From Clostridia bacterium (GTDB lineage Bacteria > Bacillota > Clostridia > TANB77 > CAG-508), in the NCBI GenBank assembly GCA_017939755.1, contig JAGBAJ010000038.1:79216-143215 (forward strand): DNA of 64,000 nucleotides, read 5' to 3'. The notes beneath the pieces were generated by a model. It made no database searches. It was not told where the DNA came from and saw nothing but the letters and a program-made list of their open reading frames with translations. Below are positions 7,305 to 61,553 of this stretch, in pieces. The translations under genes were made by a program, and so were the position numbers. The first letter of the stretch is position 1. Each line of letters starts with the position of its first letter.

Positions 7305-7410
7305 ATTTAAATCGTTAGATGAATTTGAAAAATAGTTAAATTTTAGCGTACGAACAAATACGTGGCGTGTAAAGTAATCTAAAATGTTAAAGAATATTAA
7401 TCATGTCACT

Positions 7411-7641
7411 TTTGTTATACATTAGGAAAGTCATGTTGACTTTTCCTAATGTATAAAGAGGGCTTCGCCGAAAACAGATGCACAGAAATTTTATTGCATA
7501 AAATTTCGCGCCGAACATCGATTAGCCGTGTGAATGAAATGAATTACGGATAATACATACACAGGAAATTCACGGAAAACCTTCGATTTTCCGATTTGTT
7601 CTATAAGATTAAGATTTGTGCCCAGAAGGAATGGAGTTAAT
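7411..7641 (+). repeat. Family B mosaic repeat fused to SD module (copy B2)
   Basis: Hairpin module TACATTAGGAAAGTCATGTTGACTTTTCCTAATGTA, then GGCTTCGCCGAAAACAGATGCACA..., ending AAGATTTGTGCCCAGAAGGAATGGAG just before the yqfC ATG. Confidence 0.8.
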
Positions 7642-7920
7642 ATGAAAAATAAAAGATTACATAGACTTAATAAAGTTTTAGATTTGCCAGACGAAGTAAC
7701 ATCTGATGTCCCTAAAATAACCAATTTAGGGTTTTCAAAAATGATGATAGAAAATTACAGAGCAATTTTGGAGTATCAGGATTTTTTTATTAGGATACGT
7801 ACTACAATTGGAATTATAAATATAAATGGTTATGAATTAAAGATGAACGAAATGACAACAGATGATATTCTTATAGAAGGAAAAATTGATAGTATTGATT
7901 TTGAAGCCATAGAAGACTAG
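7642..7920 (+). CDS. yqfC: Sporulation protein YqfC
   Basis: LDLPDEVTSDVPKIT...ENYRAILEYQD...IEGKIDSIDF is typical of YqfC. It lies immediately upstream of yqfD. The ATG at 7642 follows GGAG. Confidence 0.85.
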   Translation: MKNKRLHRLNKVLDLPDEVTSDVPKITNLGFSKMMIENYRAILEYQDFFIRIRTTIGIININGYELKMNEMTTDDILIEGKIDSIDFEAIED

Positions 7921-10852: not shown

Positions 10853-10860
10853 GGGAAAAT

Positions 10861-11011
10861 GTGAAAGATAATTGATTTTTGCATCGTTAAATTTCACTTT
10901 AAATCTAATCAATGTGCAAAAAGCACGCCTCATAGATTTAAAACTCATTTGCCTTGCAAAAATGCAATTCTTTTTCATATTAGATTTTGTAGAGAAGGAA
11001 TGGAGAATTTT
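10861..11011 (+). repeat. Family A MITE-like element plus SD module (copy A2) between ybeY and era
   Basis: About 90 % identical by eye to 1255-1408. Ends ...TAGATTTTGTAGAGAAGGAATGGAGAATTTT followed by the ATG. Confidence 0.85.
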
Positions 11012-11917
11012 ATGAGCGAGGAATTTAAATCGGGATTTGTCTCAATGATGGGGAGAACTAATGTAGGAAAGTCAAGTATAATGAATAGTTTGGTTAAAGA
11101 AAAAGTAGCTGCAATAGCAAATAAACCACAAACAACAAGAAATGCTATAAGAGCCATTGTTAACAGAGACAACCTACAAATAGTTTTTATTGATACACCT
11201 GGTATTCATAAACCAAAATCGAAACTTGGAAATGTAATGGTTGAAACTGCTTTTGGCGTCGTTCCAGATGTTGATGTTGTGTTATTTGTTATTGAGGCTA
11301 CATCCGATAGCATTGGAAAAGGTGATAGAATTATTCTTGATAGAATAAAAGAGTCCAATAAAAAGGCAATTTTAATAATTAATAAAATCGATTTGGTAAG
11401 GAGAGAAAGTATTGCTAAACTTATTGATTTATATAAAGATGAGTATAATTTTGAAGCGATAATTCCTGTATCTGTTGAAAAAAATATAAATATGGATGCA
11501 ATAATTGATGAAATTAGTAAACATTTAAAAGTTGGTCCTGCATATTATGATATAGAGGAATATACAGACCAAACTTTAAGACAGTTAGTAGAAGAAATTA
11601 TTAGAGAAAAAGCATTAAGGCTTCTAAATGATGAAGTTCCTCATGGAATATATGTAGAAACAGAAAAAATGAAAGAGCGTGAATCTAAGTCAGGAGAACC
11701 TATATACGATGTTGATGCAACAATATATTGTTTAAGAAATTCTCACAAGGGAATAATTATTGGAAAAGACGGAAATATGCTCAAAAAAATTGCATCGTAT
11801 GCAAGAATGGATTTGGAGAAAATGCTAGATGTAAAAATAAATTTAAAGGTATGGGTTAAAGTCAAAGAAGATTGGCTAAATAATGATAGTCTTGTTAAAA
11901 AATTTAAATTACAATAG
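11012..11917 (+). CDS. era: GTPase Era
   Basis: GFVSMMGRTNVGKSS (G1), DTPG (G3), NKID (G4), and a C-terminal KH domain. The start is taken at the ATG after GGAG. The upstream 21 codons are repeat read-through. Confidence 0.95.
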   Translation: MSEEFKSGFVSMMGRTNVGKSSIMNSLVKEKVAAIANKPQTTRNAIRAIVNRDNLQIVFIDTPGIHKPKSKLGNVMVETAFGVVPDVDVVLFVIEATSDSIGKGDRIILDRIKESNKKAILIINKIDLVRRESIAKLIDLYKDEYNFEAIIPVSVEKNINMDAIIDEISKHLKVGPAYYDIEEYTDQTLRQLVEEIIREKALRLLNDEVPHGIYVETEKMKERESKSGEPIYDVDATIYCLRNSHKGIIIGKDGNMLKKIASYARMDLEKMLDVKINLKVWVKVKEDWLNNDSLVKKFKLQ

Positions 11918-12865: not shown

Positions 12866-12877
12866 CAATTAATAGTT

Positions 12878-13075
12878 AAAATTCACAGCTAAATAATAAA
12901 GATTAGTGATATAGTGTAAATTTATAATATTACGCCCCAACTGCATAAGAAAATTTATATTTTTACTGTGTTGTAAAAATTAAATTCTCTAATTTGCTGG
13001 TCCTCACCTTAACTTCATATTATAAATTTACACTATATCACTAATCTTATATGAAAATAAGTTAAGTTGTGAGTT
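12878..13075 (+). repeat. Family R palindromic MITE-like element (copy R1)
   Basis: A 32-bp perfect stem (12899-12930 with 13017-13048) flanks the core TACGCCCCAACTGCA...TTTGCTGGTCCTCACCTTAACTTC. Outer ends are AAATTCACAGCT and a degenerate AAGTTGTGAGTT. Confidence 0.85.
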
Positions 13076-13118
13076 GGAACAATCAACATAATTTTCTATC
13101 AAAAAATAAAAAAAGCTC

Positions 13119-13164: not shown

Positions 13165-13360
13165 AGCTATTCTAATCCCTGCATAGTGCGTGTAGACTGA
13201 AATTTTAGAACCAACGCGGATTAAACGGGAATCTGCCTTTGGATGTGGCGTGCAAGCTTAACTCGTATTAAGAAGCCCAGAAGCATTCAACAAGATACCC
13301 ACCTGTGAAAGCAGGTCCTTAAAATTTCACTAATCCTTACGGCTAAAGCGGGGCTCTTTT
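13165..13360 (+). ncRNA. ssrS: 6S RNA (SsrS)-like regulatory RNA
   Basis: About 195-nt non-coding rod. The 5' TCCCTGC pairs with the 3' GCGGGG, and TGAAATTTTA (13198-) pairs with TAAAATTTCA (13319-). From memory, it contains blocks reminiscent of E. coli and B. subtilis 6S (GATGTGGCG, GAAGCC, CATTCA, CCCACCTG...GCAGGTC hairpin). It has its own promoter and a downstream terminator. Confidence 0.65.
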
Positions 13361-18522: not shown

Positions 18523-18534
18523 GTAAAACAAAAA

Positions 18535-18696
18535 GTTGAAAAAACAATTACAATTTTGGCTGTGTCAAATTTCTTTTAAAACATGGTTACATACAATGAG
18601 TATGTGCCCTTGCTGTTTAAATTAAATTTTCCTTACCAAAATTTAAACCTTCTTAGGCTGCTAGATTTGTACTTTGAGGAAGGAATATGATTACAT
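18535..18696 (+). repeat. Family A' MITE-like element plus SD module (copy A'1) between nusB and xseA
   Basis: GTTGAAAAAACAATTACAATTTTGGC...TACCAAAATTTAAACCTTCTTAGGC, then CTAGATTTGTACTTTGAGGAAGGAAT. Closely matches 40466-40620. Confidence 0.8.
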
Positions 18697-36720: not shown

Positions 36721-36745
36721 AAAGTCTATAATATTTAAGGAATTC

Positions 36746-36811
36746 AAGATATAATATTAATTTATAAGTTTCGACCCCACACGGAAGAATAAGTAATTGT
36801 TGCTGTGCTTT
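36746..36811 (+). repeat. Family R repeat, truncated left half (copy R2')
   Basis: AAGATATAATATTAATTTATAAGTTTCGACCCCACACGGAAGAATAAGTAATTGTTGCTGTGCTTT aligns with 52541-52605 of the full copy. The right half is absent. Confidence 0.7.
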
Positions 36812-36837
36812 ATAATTGTATAATTTAAAATAAAAAA

Positions 36838-40465: not shown

Positions 40466-40620
40466 GTTGAAAAATAATTACAATTTTGGCTGTGTCAAAG
40501 TTTATTTAAAACGCGGTTACATACAATAAGTATGCGTTCTTGCTTTTTAAATTGAATTTTCCTTGCCGAAATTTAATTCTTTTCCAACTGGATTTGTGCT
40601 TAGAAGGAATGGAGTAATAT
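40466..40620 (+). repeat. Family A' MITE-like element plus SD module (copy A'2)
   Basis: TIRs GTTGAAAAATAATTACAATTTTGGC / GCCGAAATTTAATTCTTTTCCAAC, then TGGATTTGTGCTTAGAAGGAATGGAG, and the ATG at 40621. Confidence 0.85.
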
Positions 40621-41346
40621 ATGGATATCAAGTTAATTACAAAAAAATGTCCAAATTGTGGAGCAAATTTAAAATTTAATATGAGTGATACTTCTGTTAC
40701 ATGTGAGTATTGCGGAACATATGCACTAATAGAGCATGATAGAAAAAATATGTATACTACTACAGAACCTGGCGTAAATAGAATATATGTAAATAAAGCT
40801 GGAGAGGTATTTAAGTGGGTAAGCCGTGCAATTATATCTGCAATGCTATTAATATTTGGAATTATGATGTGCTCGTTAAGTAGCCCTATTTATGGAGTTA
40901 TTTTAATTTTTGGTGCAATATTAACAATGTTGCCAATATCAATAAAGGGAATTGACAAGATACCACATTTGAGAGCTGCAATAATTGCTATAATATTTTT
41001 TGTTGGTTTCTTTGGCGGATGTATGTCTATGTACGAATTACCATCAGAATTTCAAGGGAAATACGTATCAGATACTTCAGGTATTATTGTTGAAATTAAA
41101 GGAAATAACATTAAAGTTACAGATGGTGATTATGTTGTGAAAGAAAAATTATATACGTGGGAAGAAACCTGGGGACACGTTACATATCACAATATAAAAG
41201 TAAACAATGGTGAGTATGAATTTAGATTGGTGGATCATGGTGGGGTAGAATTTCAATTTTATGAGAGAGCTCCATATGGCACCCCAAAAACTTTTTATTA
41301 CAATACAAAAAATAAGAGCAAATATATTTGTGAAGAAAAATATTAG
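40621..41346 (+). CDS. Zinc-ribbon membrane protein, function unknown
   Basis: N-terminal CPNCG...CEYCG, 3-4 TM helices, and a soluble C-domain. Confidence 0.6.
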   Translation: MDIKLITKKCPNCGANLKFNMSDTSVTCEYCGTYALIEHDRKNMYTTTEPGVNRIYVNKAGEVFKWVSRAIISAMLLIFGIMMCSLSSPIYGVILIFGAILTMLPISIKGIDKIPHLRAAIIAIIFFVGFFGGCMSMYELPSEFQGKYVSDTSGIIVEIKGNNIKVTDGDYVVKEKLYTWEETWGHVTYHNIKVNNGEYEFRLVDHGGVEFQFYERAPYGTPKTFYYNTKNKSKYICEEKY

Positions 41347-41552: not shown

Positions 41553-43553
<2,001 letters not shown>

Positions 43554-43577: not shown

Positions 43578-43994
43578 ATGGAAGAAAAATATAGAATGGC
43601 TTATGCAGAAGTTAACGAAATTTTAAAGTTATCATCTGTGGAGGTTACAAATAAAATACCATACAATTTTAGAAGAAAAATAATAAAAAATATGGATAAA
43701 AATTACGTTCCAAATATAACTCCCAAGAAAGATTTTTTAGAGCAAAATCTCATGAATGAAACGTACGAGATACTTAAGCTAATATATATAAAATATCTGG
43801 AACCGCAAAGCCCAAAAAAAGAAGTTACAGAAAAATTTAATGCTAATGATATTTTTAAAGACAGAAGAGCTTCAAATAATCAGTCGTCTATCGATAGTGA
43901 AAAGAAATCAGATGAGCTTATAATGATTAATCATAAATGGTACATCAAATTATTAAATAAGATAAAGAATTTTTTTAGAGGGAGTAAGGTATAG
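43578..43994 (+). CDS. Hypothetical small protein, paralog of 52153-52500
   Basis: AYAEVNEIL...NKIPYNFRRKIIKNMDKNYV aligns with AYTEVNAII...NKIPEKVRANIKQKMDKSYV. It starts 25 nt after ligA (SD AGAGAGAGG). Confidence 0.65.
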   Translation: MEEKYRMAYAEVNEILKLSSVEVTNKIPYNFRRKIIKNMDKNYVPNITPKKDFLEQNLMNETYEILKLIYIKYLEPQSPKKEVTEKFNANDIFKDRRASNNQSSIDSEKKSDELIMINHKWYIKLLNKIKNFFRGSKV

Positions 43995-45727
43995 TGGATA
44001 AAGGATTAGAATTAAAAATAAATGAGCTATTTGAATATAATTCCGAAAAGTCACAAGATTTTGAGATATATTCATATCCATATTTAATAAGAAAAATTAA
44101 TGATGAAAATTTAAAGCAACGTGCTCAAGCAAAACTAATACAGATTGCATTGCAAGATTATGATATTTCGGCTGTAGAATATATTTTAGAAAATTTGAAT
44201 ATGCCACAAGAAGAAAAAAATCCAGTATATATAGAATTATTAGAAAAAAGATTAAAAAAAATAAATTTAGATGAGATTAAAGATTCAGAGAATGACATAA
44301 GTTATAGATTGTCAATTTTTGGAGATTTTCAAAGAATTTTTTCAAATTTACACTTAGTTGAAGATGACGCTAAGTGGAAAAAAAATTTTATTGATAAATG
44401 TAGCGAAGCTCTTGATGGCTATTTAGAGTGGTATATTGGTTCTTATGAAGGTGGCAGAGAAAGTAGAATAATTAATGAACATTTACGCTACATATTATAT
44501 TGTGAAAATCCAGGTGATGTAAATATTCTTATGGAAAAATGGGGAACAGAGTTTCAAGATGATTATAAAAAGATAGTAGAGCTTCATTGTAATAAAAACT
44601 ATATAATGGATAGAGCAAATTCATATAGTTTTGACGAAGTTGACCTCGGAGTAGATGAAGATTTAACCATAGGTACAGAGATAGAAATTAATCAAAAGAA
44701 TAGACATGCTTTATACCCATTAAATGAACAGATTGGAATAGAAGAGTGGACTACAAGACCTGATGCAACTGTACCTGATGGAAATGAATTTATATCGCCT
44801 CCAATGAGAAATACTCCAGAAGATATGTGTAAATTTAAAGCAATACTTGAAACACTTAAAGAAACAGGACATTATTTTGACTATTCTGAGAAATTTAATT
44901 CAAATGCTTCTGGACAAATAAATATAGGACTGGATTATTTAGATACTGCTGAATCGATACTTACTTTTTTTGAATTATATGGCAATGCAGAAGAAATATT
45001 ATATCATATTGCTAATCCAGATGGGCAAATAACAAGACAACCAGTTTTTGATAATTCAAGAATGAATCCAATATCTACCCAAATTGGTAAGGTAAGTGTT
45101 GATGAAGATATTAGTAGAGACGAAACTATAAGGATGTTATCTGGATTTGACGATATACGAATGAAACATAAAAAAATGTCTATTTGTATAAGAGATGGTT
45201 TGGTAAAAGGAAGAGCTAGACTTGAGTGGAGAATGCCAAATGGAAGTTGTGAATTTGAGGTGTGGAAAGCAAATATTAAATTGATAGCTAAAATAGTTGA
45301 AAAATCAAAGGAAATAGCAAATATAAAGTTAAAATCCGATATTACCCCTGAGGAAGAAGAAAAACTAATGTTATTCGAGTCACTAAAAACTGAGAAATAC
45401 AAAGATGAAATGGACTACAAAAGACGAAATTTATTTGAGCCATTAAACTACAATGAAATAAATGACGAAAAATTAGTCGATTTTTTAGATTTAATTTTTG
45501 AAGATGAGAATGATAAAAAGGTATATTTTGATAGATATTATATGACAGAGCAATCTATAGAGCGAACTGGAACCAATAAATATTACCCATATAGTAGATG
45601 CGATAATCCAGGACAAGGTTTTAAAATGGTACAGTTTGAGAGGGTTTATAGAAGTAGGCAGAAGGTTTATTCTTATGATCCAGAAACAGGAAGATACACA
45701 GAGGACGAAGATTTTGGAGATAGATAG
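43994..45727 (+). CDS. Hypothetical 577-aa protein with amidoligase-like (Amidoligase_2/GCS2-like) central region
   Basis: The GTG start overlaps the preceding TAG (TAGTG). The motifs IGTEIEI, GNEFISPP and ARLEWRMPNGS occur in the order expected for the GxExE / E-x-x-SP / EFR signatures of the putative amidoligase family. Confidence 0.6.
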   Translation: MDKGLELKINELFEYNSEKSQDFEIYSYPYLIRKINDENLKQRAQAKLIQIALQDYDISAVEYILENLNMPQEEKNPVYIELLEKRLKKINLDEIKDSENDISYRLSIFGDFQRIFSNLHLVEDDAKWKKNFIDKCSEALDGYLEWYIGSYEGGRESRIINEHLRYILYCENPGDVNILMEKWGTEFQDDYKKIVELHCNKNYIMDRANSYSFDEVDLGVDEDLTIGTEIEINQKNRHALYPLNEQIGIEEWTTRPDATVPDGNEFISPPMRNTPEDMCKFKAILETLKETGHYFDYSEKFNSNASGQINIGLDYLDTAESILTFFELYGNAEEILYHIANPDGQITRQPVFDNSRMNPISTQIGKVSVDEDISRDETIRMLSGFDDIRMKHKKMSICIRDGLVKGRARLEWRMPNGSCEFEVWKANIKLIAKIVEKSKEIANIKLKSDITPEEEEKLMLFESLKTEKYKDEMDYKRRNLFEPLNYNEINDEKLVDFLDLIFEDENDKKVYFDRYYMTEQSIERTGTNKYYPYSRCDNPGQGFKMVQFERVYRSRQKVYSYDPETGRYTEDEDFGDR

Positions 45728-46008: not shown

Positions 46009-46536
46009 ATGGATATTGAAGAGGTTAAACAGAATGCCAACAACAAAGAAAAGTTCATGGAATATGTTAAAGAAGATGGTTTAGTTTTAGAATGGGCTTC
46101 ACCAGAGCTGCAAGATGATAAAGAGCTAGTAATGGAAGCTGTAAAATGTGATGGTGGAGCTTTAGAGTTTGCAAGCGATAGATTAAAAGATGACAAAGAT
46201 ATTTTATTAACTGCAGTTGAGGTTAAGGGTTGGGTTTTATGCTATGCAAGTGAAAGGCTTCAAGCAGATAAAGATGTTGTTTTAAAAGCTGCGAGTCATG
46301 ATGGACAGGTTTTATATTATGCAAGTCAAAAGCTAAGAGATGATAAAGATGTAGTACTTGCAGCAGTTAGTAATAAAGGTATAATTTTAAAATATGCAAG
46401 CAGACGTATGAGAGAAGATAAAGATGTAGCTATAGCTACATTAAAACAATCTAAAAAAGCTTTTAGCTATATTGGTGATACATTAAAGGATGATCCTGAT
46501 ATACAAAATATTATGAATCCACCAACTGATGGATAG
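46009..46536 (+). CDS. DUF4116 repeat protein
   Basis: Five tandem repeats of about 30 aa of the type G..L.YAS..L..DKDVVLAAV, which is the DUF4116 signature. Confidence 0.75.
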   Translation: MDIEEVKQNANNKEKFMEYVKEDGLVLEWASPELQDDKELVMEAVKCDGGALEFASDRLKDDKDILLTAVEVKGWVLCYASERLQADKDVVLKAASHDGQVLYYASQKLRDDKDVVLAAVSNKGIILKYASRRMREDKDVAIATLKQSKKAFSYIGDTLKDDPDIQNIMNPPTDG

Positions 46537-48485: not shown

Positions 48486-48575
48486 AAAATACCTCCGAGA
48501 AAAAATATAATATATAGTATATGCAATAAAATAAAAAAAGATAATAAATGAATCTTTAAAAAGAAGTTACCAATT

Positions 48576-48796
48576 GTTACAATTCACAGCTTTAAAATTA
48601 TGTAATAAAGATTAGCAATATAATGTAAATTTATAATATTACGCCCCAACTACATAAGAGAATCTATTTTTTTTACAGCGTGATACACTTGTAAAAATTA
48701 GATTCTCTAATTTGTTGGTCCCCACCTTAACTTCATATTATAAATTTACATTATATTGCTAATCTTATATGAAATTAAGCTGTGAATCGTAGTTAC
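48576..48796 (+). repeat. Family R palindromic MITE-like element (copy R3)
   Basis: A 32-bp perfect stem (48608-48639 with 48735-48766) and the core TACGCCCCAACTACA...TTTGTTGGTCCCCACCTTAACTTC. Ends are GTTACAATTCACAGC / GCTGTGAATCGTAGTTAC. AGTTACCAATT occurs at both borders. Confidence 0.85.
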
Positions 48797-49691: not shown

Positions 49692-49714
49692 CAGCATGTA
49701 AATGCTGTTTTTTT
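49692..49714 (+). terminator. Rho-independent terminator of rpmF
   Basis: Stem CAGCAT / ATGCTG with a GTAA loop, then a T7 run. Confidence 0.7.
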
Positions 49715-49893
49715 GCTCTAAGAAAGAATTTGTTTATAACTTTTAATATACTGCTATTGTTGCAAATAGTTGCTCTAAACAGAAGAAAATGGTATAATGA
49801 TGGATAATGTTTACAGAGATATTCTATCAAGTTTTGTAAAAATGATAAATTATTTAATGTGCAAAGCTATTAACCAAGAAAAGGAGAATAAGT

Positions 49894-52125
49894 ATGAGAG
49901 TATTAATATACGAAGGTAAGGAATTTAGGTCTATTAGTCAACTTGCTGCATACACGGGAATAGAAAGATCAAGATTAAGTAGAGCAATACAAAAGAATAC
50001 AGATACTCCGATAGAAGATATTATAGCCACTTTAAAAGTTACTAAAACATATACTTATAATGGAAAAGAATATGATTCAATTAGGTCTGCTGCAGATGAT
50101 TTAAAATTAAATAAAAATACACTATCTAAGTATCTAAAATTAGCAAACGATAACTTAGAAGCAGCTATGGAGTTATTCCACAAAGAGCATACTTTTGCTA
50201 CAATAGATGGTGTTAGGTATTCCTCTGCTGAAAAATTAGCACATAAACTAGGAGTTAACAACATTACGCTTACTAAATATATAAACAAAAGTGCAACTAT
50301 CGAGGAGGCAGTTCAAGCAATAATAAGTATGAAAAATAAATATGTTTGGAGAGGAAAATCGTACGAGAGTGATTCTAGCCTGGCGCGTGCAATGGGAATG
50401 TCACGACCTACACTTCTTAGACTTATCGAAAAAAATGAGAGGATGAGTTTAGACGATATATATGAGTTATATCATTCTAGAAATGACGGAAAATTTAAAG
50501 GATATACATATGGAGGAAAAGAATATTCTTCATTAAGAGGTATGCTTACAGATTTAGATATCTCTCCTCAAAGATATTACGGAAAAATCGAAGAATGTGG
50601 TGGTGATATGGAAAAGGCTATAGAGCTACTACTTGAAGAAAATGAAGAAAGAAAACATAAAGCTGAAGAAAAATTAAAATCAGAATTAGAGCAAAAAGCT
50701 CTAATGGAAAAGAAAAAAATAGAGGCTCCAGTGTACACATTTAATGGGGAGGAATATCAGTCTATAGCGGCATTATCAAGAGCAGTTGGGATTAGTGAAA
50801 CCACGATAAAAAGATTATTAGTTGAATACGGTAATGACTTAGATGCAGCCATAAAAGATAGAGCAGAAAATAAAATTATATACAACTATCAAGGTGTAGA
50901 ATATCCTAGCATAAAGGCTTTGTCTGCTGCCACAGGAATAAAAGAGCTAAGACTAGGAAGATATATACGAAAATATAATCGTGATGCTGAAAAAGCAATT
51001 TTTATGATCAAACTAAGAGATTCTAGACTAAAAGCTAATAAAGAGAAAGATTCAGATATAAATATTCAAGATATAGCAATTATATTAGGTATTAAACGTA
51101 GAGATTTAGAAACATTACTTAATAGTGGGATGTCCATTGATGAGATAAAAGATAGTTTATCCAGAGGAGATTTATCTGTAGCTGAAAGAGGTATCAGAGC
51201 AAAAAAAGTAATGTATGATGAAAAACAAAGTTTGCATGAATATTGTGTAGAGCATGGTTTGAACTATAGTTGTATATATTATGCAATGACAACCTATGGA
51301 AAGACTAAGGAACAAGCAATACAAAACTATAAGGAAAATGGACAAAAAATACCGACTGCATGGATTTATGAAAGATATGGAGTTTTACTAAAACATTTAT
51401 TACTTTCAGAAAATATAGATTCAAAAAAAATTATTGCACATATGCGTGTATTTGGTACTTCTTTAGAGGAGGCAATTGAAAACTATATAATTGATGATAT
51501 CTCCAAAGAAAGAGATTTAGATAAATTTTGGCAACGCGAAGTATATTCAGCTCTTACATTAGATATTTTTTCTGAGGATGAAAAAAATGATTTTATAAAA
51601 GAGTTTAGGATAAATTCAGATGAGATACAGGCTACAGAAGATTGTAAAGCAAGAATTGACCAAGTAAAAAGAAAGATGCTTCTTTACGAAATGTCTGAAT
51701 GTATACAAGAGGAACTATTTACTAAAACTGAAATGGCTACAATTATGCGTATGTACAATATATCTGCAGATGAACTTGAAACAATTTTCTTGGAGTTATA
51801 TTCTAAATTTGATAATAAAGTATTATTAGGTAGTGAGCAAGATGAGTTAACGAGAAGAAGGCAGATAATACAATATATAAAGGAATTACCAAGTTATTCT
51901 GAAGAGAATATTAGTGATTTACGAGCAAAAGTTTCTGAGGATGAGTATAAACATATTATAGAAACGTCAAATTTAATTCAGACATACAAAGAAGCGGTTA
52001 CTACTGATGCAGATTTATTAAAGCTTATGAGATCCACTGTACGTGATAATATATCAACTAATGTAGAAACAAGAAAAGAGTTATCTAAATCAATTGAACC
52101 AAAAGATAAAATAGTTAAAAGATAG
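49894..52125 (+). CDS. Hypothetical 743-aa protein made of tandem NUMOD1-like HTH modules
   Basis: At least 7 repeats of about 49 aa, Y.Y.GKEY.S...LA...GI....L.RYI.K.....E.AI (for example YTYNGKEYDSIRSAADDLKLNKNTLSKYLK and YTFNGEEYQSIAALSRAVGISETTIKRLL), plus degenerate copies. No nuclease motif was seen. Confidence 0.65.
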   Translation: MRVLIYEGKEFRSISQLAAYTGIERSRLSRAIQKNTDTPIEDIIATLKVTKTYTYNGKEYDSIRSAADDLKLNKNTLSKYLKLANDNLEAAMELFHKEHTFATIDGVRYSSAEKLAHKLGVNNITLTKYINKSATIEEAVQAIISMKNKYVWRGKSYESDSSLARAMGMSRPTLLRLIEKNERMSLDDIYELYHSRNDGKFKGYTYGGKEYSSLRGMLTDLDISPQRYYGKIEECGGDMEKAIELLLEENEERKHKAEEKLKSELEQKALMEKKKIEAPVYTFNGEEYQSIAALSRAVGISETTIKRLLVEYGNDLDAAIKDRAENKIIYNYQGVEYPSIKALSAATGIKELRLGRYIRKYNRDAEKAIFMIKLRDSRLKANKEKDSDINIQDIAIILGIKRRDLETLLNSGMSIDEIKDSLSRGDLSVAERGIRAKKVMYDEKQSLHEYCVEHGLNYSCIYYAMTTYGKTKEQAIQNYKENGQKIPTAWIYERYGVLLKHLLLSENIDSKKIIAHMRVFGTSLEEAIENYIIDDISKERDLDKFWQREVYSALTLDIFSEDEKNDFIKEFRINSDEIQATEDCKARIDQVKRKMLLYEMSECIQEELFTKTEMATIMRMYNISADELETIFLELYSKFDNKVLLGSEQDELTRRRQIIQYIKELPSYSEENISDLRAKVSEDEYKHIIETSNLIQTYKEAVTTDADLLKLMRSTVRDNISTNVETRKELSKSIEPKDKIVKR

Positions 52126-52152: not shown

Positions 52153-52500
52153 ATGTTAGATAGTAGAGCATACACCGAAGTGAATGCTATAATTAGTGCC
52201 TTATCTATACACAAAAGGAATAAAATTCCAGAGAAAGTAAGAGCTAATATAAAGCAAAAGATGGATAAGAGCTATGTATTTACCATTGATTGTAATGATA
52301 TAAAAAATACAATACTATTAGAAGATACAAAGAAAATTTTATCTGTATTATATGTTGATTATTTTTCAACATATGCAGAGCGAGAAATAGCTACTAAGAT
52401 TGAAAAAGATAGATATTTAAAAGAAGAGCAATTAAAATTAAAAAGATTTCCTATTGATGTTTTTGAAAAGAGAATAAAAAAGTATCGCGGAAATGGATAA
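52153..52500 (+). CDS. Hypothetical small protein, paralog of 43578-43994
   Basis: AAGGAGG SD. The N-terminal 75 aa align with the ligA-linked small protein. Confidence 0.65.
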   Translation: MLDSRAYTEVNAIISALSIHKRNKIPEKVRANIKQKMDKSYVFTIDCNDIKNTILLEDTKKILSVLYVDYFSTYAEREIATKIEKDRYLKEEQLKLKRFPIDVFEKRIKKYRGNG

Positions 52501-52502
52501 AA

Positions 52503-52722
52503 TGTTACAATTTACAGCTAATAAGATCTTGTTAGAATTTAAAGATATAATATCAATTTATGAGTTCCACCCCAACTGCAGAGAATAAGTAATTGTTGCT
52601 TTGCTGTACGCTTGCAACATTCACTTATTCTACTTTGTTGGTCCCCGCCTTAATTTCACATCATAAATTGATATTATATCTTTAAAGTTTTATATATTGC
52701 TATTTAGCTGTGAATTGTAACA
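52503..52722 (+). repeat. Family R palindromic MITE-like element (copy R4, variant core)
   Basis: TIRs TGTTACAATTTACAGCT / AGCTGTGAATTGTAACA. Core CCACCCCAACTGCAGAGAATAAGT...ACTTATTCTACTTTGTTGGTCCCCGCCTTAATTTCA. Confidence 0.85.
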
Positions 52723-52808
52723 CTAAAATAATTGCATACAAAATTTTTATATTTTAGAGTTGTTTTTGTATATTCAGATATAATATAATGTAAGAAAAAG
52801 CAGGAATA

Positions 52809-52876
52809 GTGTGAAAGATAATTGATTTTCCAATTTGTTCTACAAGATTTGTGCTTGGAAGGAATGGAGGATTTGT
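52809..52876 (+). repeat. Family A short form plus SD module (copy A4)
   Basis: GTGTGAAAGATAATTGATTTTCCAATTTGTTCTACAAGATTTGTGCTTGGAAGGAATGGAGG. Confidence 0.7.
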
Positions 52877-55469: not shown

Positions 55470-55568
55470 AAATTAGGGACGGGGTTCAATTTTAAATAAT
55501 TTAAATTGGGGACGGGGTTCAATTCTAAATAATTTGAATAAGGGACGGAGTTCAATATTAAAGTATTT
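55470..55568 (+). repeat. Three tandem 33-bp direct repeats
   Basis: AAATTAGGGACGGGGTTCAATTTTAAATAATTT, AAATTGGGGACGGGGTTCAATTCTAAATAATTT, and GAATAAGGGACGGAGTTCAATATTAAAGTATTT, with a partial fourth unit to about 55587. Confidence 0.85.
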
Positions 55569-55596
55569 AAATAAGGATGTTCTCGTGTACAAAACT

Positions 55597-55636: not shown

Positions 55637-55842
55637 CTTGATATTTTAGGGCTCAAATAGTACAATATTAGTGTCAAAATAAGAAATTTTATAATTTATT
55701 AGGGTTATAATATTGATGCGATTTATTAATACAAAGAATTTTATTTTTGCATAAGTAAAGAGAAAGGTAAAATTTTAAACGAAGAATAGGATATATTTGG
55801 AATTTCAAAAGTTCAAATGAAGCATGTCCCTAGTTTTAAAAA

Positions 55843-55869
55843 TTTAAAATTGAACCCCGTCCCTAATTT
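55843..55869 (-). repeat. Inverted copy of the 33-bp repeat unit
   Basis: TTTAAAATTGAACCCCGTCCCTAATTT is the exact reverse complement of 27 nt of unit 1. It lies 23 nt upstream of the gpsA ATG. Confidence 0.8.
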
Positions 55870-55891
55870 AAATAGAAAGGAAGAAATTTTT

Positions 55892-56881
55892 ATGAAAAAT
55901 ATTGCGATAATAGGAAGTGGAAGTTGGGGAGTTGCATTAGGAATGCACCTTGCAAGACTTGGAAATAATGTTAAGATATGGTCTTTTGAAAAAGAAGAGG
56001 CTGATTTAATAAATAACGAAAAGAAATGTAAGTTTTTACCAAATATTACCTTACCAGATAATATAATATGCTCTTTAGACTATAAAGAGGTGATTGAAGG
56101 TTCTGATTTAATTTTGCATGTTACGCCATCAAAATTTACGAGAAACATTGTTAAAGACTACAAGGATTTTGTTGATGTGAAGAAACAACCAATAATAGTT
56201 TGTTCAAAGGGGTTAGAGCTTTCAACACTTTCAATTTTAACTGATGTAATTAAAGAAGAAATTCCAAGTGCAATGGTTGGAGCTTTATCTGGACCAAGTC
56301 ATGCAGAAGAGGTTTCTGTAGGAATGCCAACAGTACTTGTTAGTGCATCAGAGGATAAATTCGTTAGAAACTTCGTTCAAGATTTATTTATGGATAAAAA
56401 CATGAGAGTATATACATCAGACGATGTTATTGGTGTTGAATATGGATCAGCTTTAAAAAATATCATTGCTTTTTGTGCTGGAGCTGCAATTGCCTTAGGT
56501 TGTGGTGATAATACATATGCAGCACTACTTACAAGGGGTTTGGCAGAAATTGCTAGACTGGGAGAGAAGGTAGGAGCTAAGAAAGAAACTTTCTTTGGAC
56601 TTACAGGATTAGGTGATTTAATTGTAACTTGTGGGAGTGAGCATAGCAGAAATAGAAAGGCAGGAAAACTTGTTGGTCAAGGATTATCTTTGGATGAAGT
56701 GAAAAAAGAAGTTGGAATGGTAATTGAAAGTATTGATAATATTGAAGCTGCATATATGTTAAAAGAAAAATATAATGTTGAAATGCCAATTGTTGATGAA
56801 GTATATAATGTTTTATACAATGGTGAAAATCCACAAGATGCAGTATATAAATTAATGCAAAGAGACAAGAAGGCTGAGTAG
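55892..56881 (+). CDS. gpsA: NAD(P)H-dependent glycerol-3-phosphate dehydrogenase
   Basis: MKNIAIIGSGSWG Rossmann motif, LSGPSHAEEV, NIIAFCAG. The upstream 25 codons of the ORF track run through the repeat. Confidence 0.95.
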   Translation: MKNIAIIGSGSWGVALGMHLARLGNNVKIWSFEKEEADLINNEKKCKFLPNITLPDNIICSLDYKEVIEGSDLILHVTPSKFTRNIVKDYKDFVDVKKQPIIVCSKGLELSTLSILTDVIKEEIPSAMVGALSGPSHAEEVSVGMPTVLVSASEDKFVRNFVQDLFMDKNMRVYTSDDVIGVEYGSALKNIIAFCAGAAIALGCGDNTYAALLTRGLAEIARLGEKVGAKKETFFGLTGLGDLIVTCGSEHSRNRKAGKLVGQGLSLDEVKKEVGMVIESIDNIEAAYMLKEKYNVEMPIVDEVYNVLYNGENPQDAVYKLMQRDKKAE

Positions 56882-61052: not shown

Positions 61053-61059
61053 AAGGATA

Positions 61060-61211
61060 GTGTGAAAGATAATTGATTTTTGCATCGTTAGATTTTATTT
61101 TATATCTAATTTACGTGAAAAAAAGCGTGCCTCATAGATTTGAACATTTACCTTGCAAAAATTCAATTCTTTTTCACACTAAATTTGTACTTAGAAGGGA
61201 TGGAGATTATT
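61060..61211 (+). repeat. Family A MITE-like element plus SD module (copy A3)
   Basis: GTGTGAAAGATAATTGATTTTTGCATCGTTAGATTTT...CCTTGCAAAAATTCAATTCTTTTTCACAC, then TAAATTTGTACTTAGAAGGGATGGAG. Confidence 0.85.
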
Positions 61212-61553
61212 ATGAGTAATGTTTATGACGCAGCCAACAAATTGGCAAGTGAAATAAGACAATCAGAAGAATTTATAAAATATAGAGATGCAAAGAAAAA
61301 GGTTCTTGCTAATCCAGATCAAAAAGAAAGAATTGAAGAATTTGAAAAAATTAGATACGAGGTTCAAGTACTATCAATGGAAAAAGGAGAGAAAAGCCCA
61401 GAAAAAATGCAAAAATTACAAGACTTATATACAATTTTAATTGATAATAAAGACATTAAAGAATATTTCGATTTAGAGGTTCGATTCAATGTTATGGTTG
61501 CTGATATAAACAAGATAATAGCGGAGTCAATGGAAGATATATTTGTAAAATAA
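61212..61553 (+). CDS. YlbF/YmcA-family (UPF0342) regulatory protein
   Basis: VYDAANKLASEIRQSEEFIKYRDAKKKV... The size (113 aa) is typical of the family. Confidence 0.7.
   Translation: MSNVYDAANKLASEIRQSEEFIKYRDAKKKVLANPDQKERIEEFEKIRYEVQVLSMEKGEKSPEKMQKLQDLYTILIDNKDIKEYFDLEVRFNVMVADINKIIAESMEDIFVK

Follow-up and report, generated by a model that had tools for sequence, protein, structure and literature searches.

A 743-residue protein encoded between rpmF and der

The window analysed here is a stretch of 64,000 nt from an uncultured gut bacterium of the Clostridia (contig JAGBAJ010000038.1, positions 79,216 to 143,215 of the forward strand). We examined a gene on its + strand (49894..52125, ATG start) encoding a 743-aa protein that consists of an N-terminal array of helix-turn-helix (HTH) modules and a conserved C-terminal domain. 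The open reading frame (ORF) agreed exactly in coordinates and length with an initial annotation made from the letters of the window. The gene is located on the chromosome between rpmF (L32; 49490-49681) and der-plsY-gpsA, and it does not reside in an intron or intein. It is followed 27 nt past its stop codon by a gene on the same strand (52153..52500) for a basic protein of 115 aa with an isoelectric point (pI) of 9.5, referred to as C2, which appears to be co-transcribed with it.

Upstream, rpmF ends in a terminator-like hairpin with a T-run (49692..49707, + strand), and the same hairpin ends rpmF at the orthologous locus of a related species (metagenome contig L037). Downstream of this terminator, we read directly from the sequence a candidate extended -10 element, TGgTATAAT (49790..49798, + strand), separated by a 17-nt spacer from a weak -35 element, TTGCTC (49770-49775). 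The candidate was not listed by a consensus scan because its -35 element matches at only 3 of 6 positions. Given its position behind the rpmF terminator, the 743-aa gene is probably transcribed from its own promoter. A ribosome-binding site, AAGGAG (49881..49886, + strand), lies 7 nt 5' of the ATG, and its region is the sole stretch upstream of the gene that is conserved between the window and L037.

The N-terminal region is an array of NUMOD1-like units

Residues 4-381 (49903..51036, + strand) form an array of seven NUMOD1-like units that was recognized by Pfam, by a sequence motif, by structure prediction and by a hidden Markov model (HMM) of the unit. Seven copies of the motif G-x2-[YF]-x-S were counted, compared with a mean of 0.18 and a maximum of 3 in 20,000 shuffled versions of the protein. 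The units start at residues 4, 53, 102, 150, 204, 281 and 330, with spacings of 49, 49, 48, 54, 77 and 49 aa, and extend over residues 4-48, 53-98, 102-146, 150-196, 204-234, 281-325 and 330-381. The seven units of about 49 aa described in the initial annotation were thus recovered, with starts agreeing within one residue. Pairwise identity among the units is 20-38%. After iteration, the unit HMM called 10 units across the whole protein, a partly circular count, as these sequences had gone into the HMM.

With Pfam, NUMOD1 (PF07453) matched four separate stretches of the protein at 55.5 bits, compared to a gathering cutoff of 22.8, and scores in relatives reached 119 bits. The remaining Pfam matches listed were to generic HTH families and, weakly, to UBA_4 (E 2.7e-5, 24.3 bits against a cutoff of 21.8) and CUE, the latter two sitting on the third helix of some units. 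A match to the PHROGs family phrog_3377, 'HNH endonuclease', covered profile positions 101-187 of 196 only, which is the C-terminal DNA-binding end. We built an AlphaFold2 model on 21 homologues (mean predicted local distance difference test, pLDDT, 79.6; predicted template modelling score, pTM, 0.50), and in this model all seven units had one fold in common, in which a two-stranded beta-hairpin precedes three helices. Searching the full model with Foldseek against predicted viral structures (BFVD) returned as top matches a phage 'NUMOD1' protein and homing endonucleases of the GIY-YIG and HNH types (E 9e-5 to 5e-3). A separate Foldseek comparison showed a weak likeness to the SOUBA triple bundle of UBAP1. 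Among PDB sequences, the unit profile came closest exclusively to DNA-binding HTHs (including TyrR, Fis, an IS transposase and Cro), at marginal E-values of 0.01-0.1. Pfam score, PHROGs match and viral structures agree in identifying the units as NUMOD1-type HTH modules, as had been proposed.

Between units 5 and 6 the model shows a 38-residue helix very rich in E, K and R (aa 239-276, 50608..50721, + strand; EKAIELLLEENEERKHKAEEKLKSELEQKALMEKKKIE), which is also apparent in the sequence and the alignment and continues the third helix of unit 5. This segment had been called a coiled-coil linker. The linker helix is indeed present, but its composition suits a single alpha-helix of the ER/K type, which is more likely than a coiled coil. 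Three homologues (P0014, P0016 and P0017) lack both the spacer helix and the two units that flank it (designated E and F, the seven units being lettered A to G).

A conserved acidic domain follows the array

The array is followed by an all-helical domain (aa 385-650, 51046..51843, + strand) with a net charge of -14 and a pI of 4.9, and by a helical tail (aa 651-743, 51844..52122, + strand) that varies in length and is modelled in part at low confidence. Past unit 7, the structure model continues with three-helix units lacking the hairpin and with longer helices up to about residue 650, where the tail begins. Within the domain we located degenerate HTH-like units at approximately aa 389-420, 441-480 and 496-532; aligning the unit profile with the C-terminal alignment by hhalign gave unit-like segments at about aa 390-426 (E 0.003), 455-481 (E 9.5e-5) and 507-529 (E 0.049). 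The degenerate copies that had been noted behind the seventh unit are therefore present, though weak, but the C-terminal part is not merely a series of decayed repeats. The last unit together with the C-terminal domain (aa ~330-650) is the most conserved and family-defining part of the protein. In an alignment of 21 sequences 29 residues were invariant, including D393, K401, C451, N457, H501, W546, E549 and R593, and this part contains the majority of the residues that do not vary within the family.

No Pfam domain was found in the C-terminal 359 aa, and the C-terminal domain has no NCBIfam model. Residues 385-650 were also modelled separately (pLDDT 80.7). Foldseek searches against the PDB with the whole protein and with aa 385-650 returned nothing significant, the best match being to designed helical proteins at E 0.03, and profile searches of PDB sequences gave no match for either the whole family or the C-terminal domain.

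The C-terminal domain defines a family with arrays of different types

A word-indexed search of 5.8 billion proteins returned only 25 relatives, all from metagenomes or metagenome-assembled genomes (MAGs) and all unnamed or annotated as 'hypothetical protein'. Scanning one genome per GTDB species gave 25 loci with relatives, the best of which was only 42% identical. With the exception of a marginal 39-residue match in a Marinilabiliales MAG, these loci belonged to MAGs of uncultured gut Clostridia and Bacilli (rabbit, sheep, mouse and human). We then used a profile of the C-terminal domain, built from 14 members including the 743-aa protein, for an exhaustive HMM search. At E<=1e-3 it matched 278 cluster representatives, of which 134 reached E<=1e-10 and 49 reached E<=1e-30. 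The 743-aa protein itself matches this profile behind its repeat array, and among the members listed the domain is located at or near the C-terminus, preceded by 0-1080 aa of repeats.

The N-terminal arrays of sampled members comprise 2-21 repeats of HTH or HA type. Pfam scans of 81 members identified HTH-type families only, apart from tandem HA (PF03457) repeats in eight of them (best E 9.6e-63). Since HA repeats take the place of NUMOD1 units in some members, the two repeat types appear to be interchangeable in this architecture. Across 93 members, the N-terminal array had a median pI of 9.2 (above 7.5 in 84%) and the C-terminal domain a median pI of 5.2; this split between a basic array and an acidic domain holds for both NUMOD1-like and HA-like arrays. 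In the 743-aa protein, residues 1-384 carry a net charge of +8 (pI 9.0). A simple hydropathy scan detected no segment resembling a transmembrane (TM) helix in any of 186 family and neighbour proteins. Our literature search on NUMOD1, tandem HTH and the HA domain found nothing on nuclease-free arrays.

To describe the grammar of the arrays, every unit of the homologues was assigned to the best-matching unit of the window protein. Orthologues with 40-45% identity kept the order B-C-D-E-F-G-h-i position by position, and the first one or two units varied. One member of 1391 aa (P0054) has 21 units that arose by repeated duplication of a B-C(-A) block. Conservation within units B, C, D and G peaks in the second HTH helix, the recognition helix (0.67-0.80), which retains polar and basic residues including T, K/R and Y (TLsKYLKL, TL.KYI, TLKRImE and RLGRYirK).

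Absence of a catalytic domain and of a mobile context

NUMOD1 modules are typical of homing endonucleases, and we searched for an enzymatic part. Regular expressions for the GIY-YIG, HNH and LAGLIDADG motifs found none in the 743-aa protein, and scans with Pfam, NCBIfam, PHROGs and PADLOC assigned it to no nuclease or other enzyme family. Pfam likewise detected an enzyme domain in none of the 81 family members. The lack of a catalytic domain reported in the initial annotation was thereby borne out, also for the C-terminal third, in which a hidden nuclease had been considered: neither profiles nor fold searches revealed one there. In tblastn searches, 50,697 phage records gave no match to either half of the protein and 72,556 plasmids gave none to its full length; IMG/VR contained no relatives. 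As both the catalytic domain and the mobile context were tested for and found to be absent, we concluded that the 743-aa protein is not a homing endonuclease.

The gene is under purifying selection in a conserved neighbourhood

Four metagenome contigs of a related species (L035-L038) carry an orthologue that is 75% identical at the protein level. The window and this relative have the gene order rpmF, terminator, 743-aa gene, 115-aa gene, DJ-1/PfpI, der, plsY and gpsA in common. Compared to the orthologue on L037 (1095-3305), the ratio of nonsynonymous to synonymous substitution rates (dN/dS, Nei-Gojobori) was 0.23 overall, 0.27 for the array, 0.18 for the C-terminal domain and 0.21 for the tail, and for the 115-aa gene it was 0.155. 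Thus, the 743-aa gene is under purifying selection and functional. Its dS of 0.58 was about half of that of plsY and DJ-1 (1.2-1.4). This low value may result from K/E-rich, A-biased codon use and saturation rather than from recent transfer.

These data bear directly on the possibility that the protein is the decaying relic of a homing endonuclease, that is, a GIY-YIG or HNH enzyme which lost its nuclease and left a drifting DNA-binding remnant. The type of module would fit such an origin, and the orthologue from a single sample (L036) is broken into pieces of 275 and 424 aa. However, the gene is intact and syntenic in L035, L037 and L038, the constraint extends over its whole length, and the order of the units has been retained across orthologues of about 40% identity. 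In addition, the array is continuous with a conserved domain that is not a nuclease and that the 278 cluster representatives have in common, the gene lies outside introns and inteins, and the phage, plasmid and viral collections searched contain no relatives. Decay is therefore extremely improbable. It is possible that the modules descended from DNA-binding domains of endonucleases, which is compatible with a present function in DNA binding.

The neighbourhood likewise argues against an ordinary local transcription factor that would control its own operon or adjacent genes and in which the extra HTH units would be redundant. HTH modules are common in such regulators, and the promoter-like element and the apparently co-transcribed small gene would be in keeping with one. 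The flanking genes, however, differ between distant members: they are rpmF and der here, ruvB and queH in L004 and L007, polC and recU in L040, and glyS in L001. Apart from the ribosome-binding site, the upstream regions of the two orthologous loci have no operator-like motif in common, and 10-21 modules together with a conserved domain of 266 aa far exceed the needs of a local repressor. We consider this explanation quite unlikely.

Still less probable is a role in defence or genetic conflict, with the array sensing foreign DNA, the C-terminal domain signalling, and tandem paralogues diversifying. Array type and length are highly variable across the family, and one contig (L039, 2-10555) carries five head-to-tail paralogues (592+, 728, 728, 722 and 726 aa) that belong to the C-terminal-domain family in its HA-repeat form. 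On the other hand, PADLOC-DB yielded only a 28-residue HTH match to mad1 (21.9 bits), none of the 81 members carries an effector or enzyme domain, and the orthologues display stable synteny and purifying selection. The distant members, too, are situated amid housekeeping genes and not in defence islands.

A multivalent DNA-binding protein as the preferred interpretation

The split in charge, the conserved unit order and the recognition-helix conservation are in keeping with an array whose units each touch a defined and conserved ligand through this helix. For a basic array of endonuclease-type HTH modules, DNA would be the obvious ligand, and the basic arrays and conserved recognition helices point to DNA binding. 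We therefore favour a non-enzymatic, multivalent DNA-binding protein whose array lies along extended DNA, whose acidic domain binds itself or a partner, and which serves in chromosome organisation or broad regulation, a reading to which we would give about an even chance. The basic array would run along extended double-stranded DNA with the second HTH helix of each unit in the major groove, and several weak contacts would together give high avidity or allow a long target, on the order of 70-100 bp, to be recognised. The E/K-rich helix might act as a spacer separating two sub-arrays. The strongly basic last unit and the acidic helical C-terminal domain would form the constant 'business end' of the family, which may mediate self-association or the binding of a partner, for example the basic 115-aa protein predicted to be encoded by the same transcript. 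In the cell, such a protein would likely help to organise the chromosome or nucleoid, or exert broad transcriptional control, in a group of uncultured gut Bacillota.

Several observations weigh against this interpretation. The 743-aa protein as a whole is slightly acidic (pI 6.1, net charge -6), and units 5 and 6 (E and F) have acidic, poorly conserved HTH cores. With a pTM of only 0.50, the model predicts neither the arrangement of the units relative to each other nor their fit to DNA. The two orthologous loci share no operator-like motif upstream of the gene, as described above, and the evidence for a partner is thin: C2 is not exclusive to the family, as its paralogues adjoin unrelated genes, and the small gene following the shorter family members, C1, is very widespread. 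Moreover, binding to proteins is another known use of three-helix bundles this small, and weak UBA_4, CUE and SOUBA matches were obtained.

The last point leads to the most serious competing explanation, a scaffold or adaptor in which the HTH-like units no longer bind DNA but, in tandem, bind proteins in the manner of UBA, CUE or SOUBA, holding several copies of a partner. Besides these weak sequence and fold matches, the acidity of the whole protein and of units 5 and 6 would be in line with a scaffold, as would the C-terminal half, which resembles helical repeats and matches designed repeat proteins only. Yet the NUMOD1 score is far above those of UBA and CUE, arrays are basic in 84% of the 93 members, conservation is highest in the HTH recognition helix, which carries basic residues, and the best viral fold matches are all to DNA-binding regions of endonucleases. 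On balance, we regard a scaffold as unlikely, and multivalent DNA binding remains the reading that we prefer.

A bolder form of the DNA-binding interpretation, tentative and rather doubtful, would see in these proteins the founding members of a natural class of long-array HTH readers. In such a class, 7 to >20 position-specific HTH or HA modules would recognise targets of about 70-200 bp or coat DNA cooperatively, the arrays would grow by duplication of supermodules of two or three units, and the acidic C-terminal domain would act as effector or anchor in a chromosome-organising or centromere-like system of uncultured gut Bacillota.

Relation to known modular DNA-binding proteins

The closest known relatives of the units are the NUMOD1 modules (PF07453, PF20987, PF22083) of homing endonucleases of the I-TevI/I-HmuI type, which have the same unit of about 45 aa with a beta-hairpin and an HTH. 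Along with a 218-aa phage protein annotated as NUMOD1 only, these enzymes gave the top viral structure matches. Homing endonucleases typically carry few NUMOD1 units. In contrast, the 743-aa protein has 7-10 units, and up to 21 are present in its relatives; it also differs by the absence of GIY-YIG, HNH and LAGLIDADG, by position-specific identities of its units, by the fusion to an acidic helical domain and by being encoded by a stable chromosomal gene. Consecutive HTH modules within one chain also occur in regulators of the AraC/MarA type. The two HTHs of MarA contact adjacent major grooves, and two consecutive units aligned with them in a weak profile match that was not significant (E 0.11). 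MarA, however, has two modules in one rigid domain, while members of this family have 7-21 separately folded units, each with a hairpin. In its presumed way of working, the 743-aa protein comes closest to such multi-HTH DNA binders, though with many more units than the MarA type.

Transcription activator-like effectors (TALEs) and TALE-like proteins are likewise long tandem arrays of small helical modules, and lengthening by duplication was seen here in the 1391-aa member. TALE repeats have two helices instead of an HTH and are almost identical apart from a few specificity residues, and no code of hypervariable residues is visible in the units of the 743-aa protein. As these units are only 20-38% identical to each other and their position-specific identities are kept between orthologues, the protein is not TALE-like. 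HA repeat proteins are related through the distant members of the C-terminal-domain family that carry tandem HA repeats (8 of 81), but the window protein itself has none. HA (helicase-associated) domains are uncharacterised, and their DNA binding is only predicted.

NUMOD1 is known as the DNA anchor of mobile homing endonucleases, whereas here it occurs in long, ordered arrays in a stable chromosomal gene. The arrays are joined to a conserved, unannotated domain that also pairs with HA repeats and that represents a new domain family of 278 cluster representatives, none of them named, that is undescribed in current databases. If the arrays read DNA, they would provide a natural example of long-target recognition assembled from many HTH modules, and they could reveal how chromosomes are organised or regulated in the poorly known gut Clostridia and Bacilli.

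Small genes next to family members

Homologues of C2 are located directly downstream of long forms of the family in L004, L007, L010, L011 and L035-L038, often overlapping the stop codon; in L028 the homologue lies directly upstream of the family gene instead. In total, C2 has 16 relatives, and it carries no family annotation. A paralogue of 138 aa is encoded in the window (43578-43994) directly after ligA (41556-43553) and ends in an amphipathic helix (WYIKLLNKIKNFFR; hydrophobic moment, muH, 0.64), and a second paralogue precedes ruvB in L007. Such a terminal helix is common to the long C2 paralogues (muH 0.64-0.81), while that of the window C2 is weak (0.46). Abutting the gene of the 138-aa paralogue is one for a 577-aa protein (43994-45727) with only a weak Amidoligase_2 match. 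We considered this neighbour as a relative of the 743-aa protein and rejected it, as hhalign gave a probability of 0.4%.

The short forms of about 590 aa are followed, often with overlap of the stop codon, by the other small gene, C1, which encodes a protein of about 87 aa with a charged N-terminal helix and two TM segments. It was found at nine loci (L013-L015, L019 at 7394-7660, L021, L023, L027, L029 and L033), with identities of 74-99%. The C1 family is unnamed, has no Pfam model and comprises 6975 clusters. A membrane tether provided by C1 or C2 was therefore dropped as a main claim: C1 is far more widespread than the 743-aa protein family, so that a membrane link was not taken as established, and the C-terminal helix of the window C2 is weak.

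Dispersed repeats and further features of the window

The window is rich in dispersed intergenic repeats. An intergenic element of about 220 nt with internal inverted symmetry is present at 12871-13083, 48575-48791 and 52503-52722, with partial copies at 360-450 and 36743-36812. The copies at 48575-48791 and 52503-52722 are in direct orientation and flank a block consisting of a 96-aa membrane ORF, rpmF, the 743-aa gene and the 115-aa gene. In L037 the spacer past the 115-aa gene is 58 nt long as opposed to about 370 nt in the window; the elements thus look like insertions of the type of miniature inverted-repeat transposable elements. When the repeat elements of the window were compared by BLAST with all loci collected, the contigs of the closest relative contained no copies. 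The speculative link between the 743-aa protein and the dispersed repeats found no support, as the closest relative keeps the gene pair without adjacent repeats.

Another element of about 150 nt ends in a ribosome-binding site and an ATG. It occurs at 1254-1411, 10858-11015 and 61059-61214, with partial copies at 40554-40623, 52805-52869 and 7602-7636, and is located directly upstream of unrelated ORFs (starts near 1268, 10949, 40621, 52873 and 61140). Possible interpretations are a promoter or leader cassette common to these ORFs and a mobile element carrying expression signals. A non-coding element of about 112 nt is present twice (18533-18651 and 40466-40576) and is 86.6% identical to positions 8297-8407 of L010, from a rabbit-gut MAG whose homologue of the 743-aa protein is just 42% identical. 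For intergenic DNA, such conservation is unusually high. The element is a candidate structured RNA or leader; Rfam at gathering thresholds gave nothing at its position.

Between plsY and gpsA, three tandem 33-nt repeats with the core GGGACGGGGTTCAA (55470-55576) and an inverted copy (55826-55873) bracket an insert of about 400 nt, compared to a plsY-gpsA spacer of 68 nt in L037. The tandem repeat at 55470-55576 occurs at that one site only. The true start of gpsA is probably the ATG at 55893 and not that at 55817. Further features of the window are a 6S RNA gene at 13173-13358 (108.8 bits) and a gene at 46009-46536 for a 175-aa protein made up of four DUF4116 repeats.

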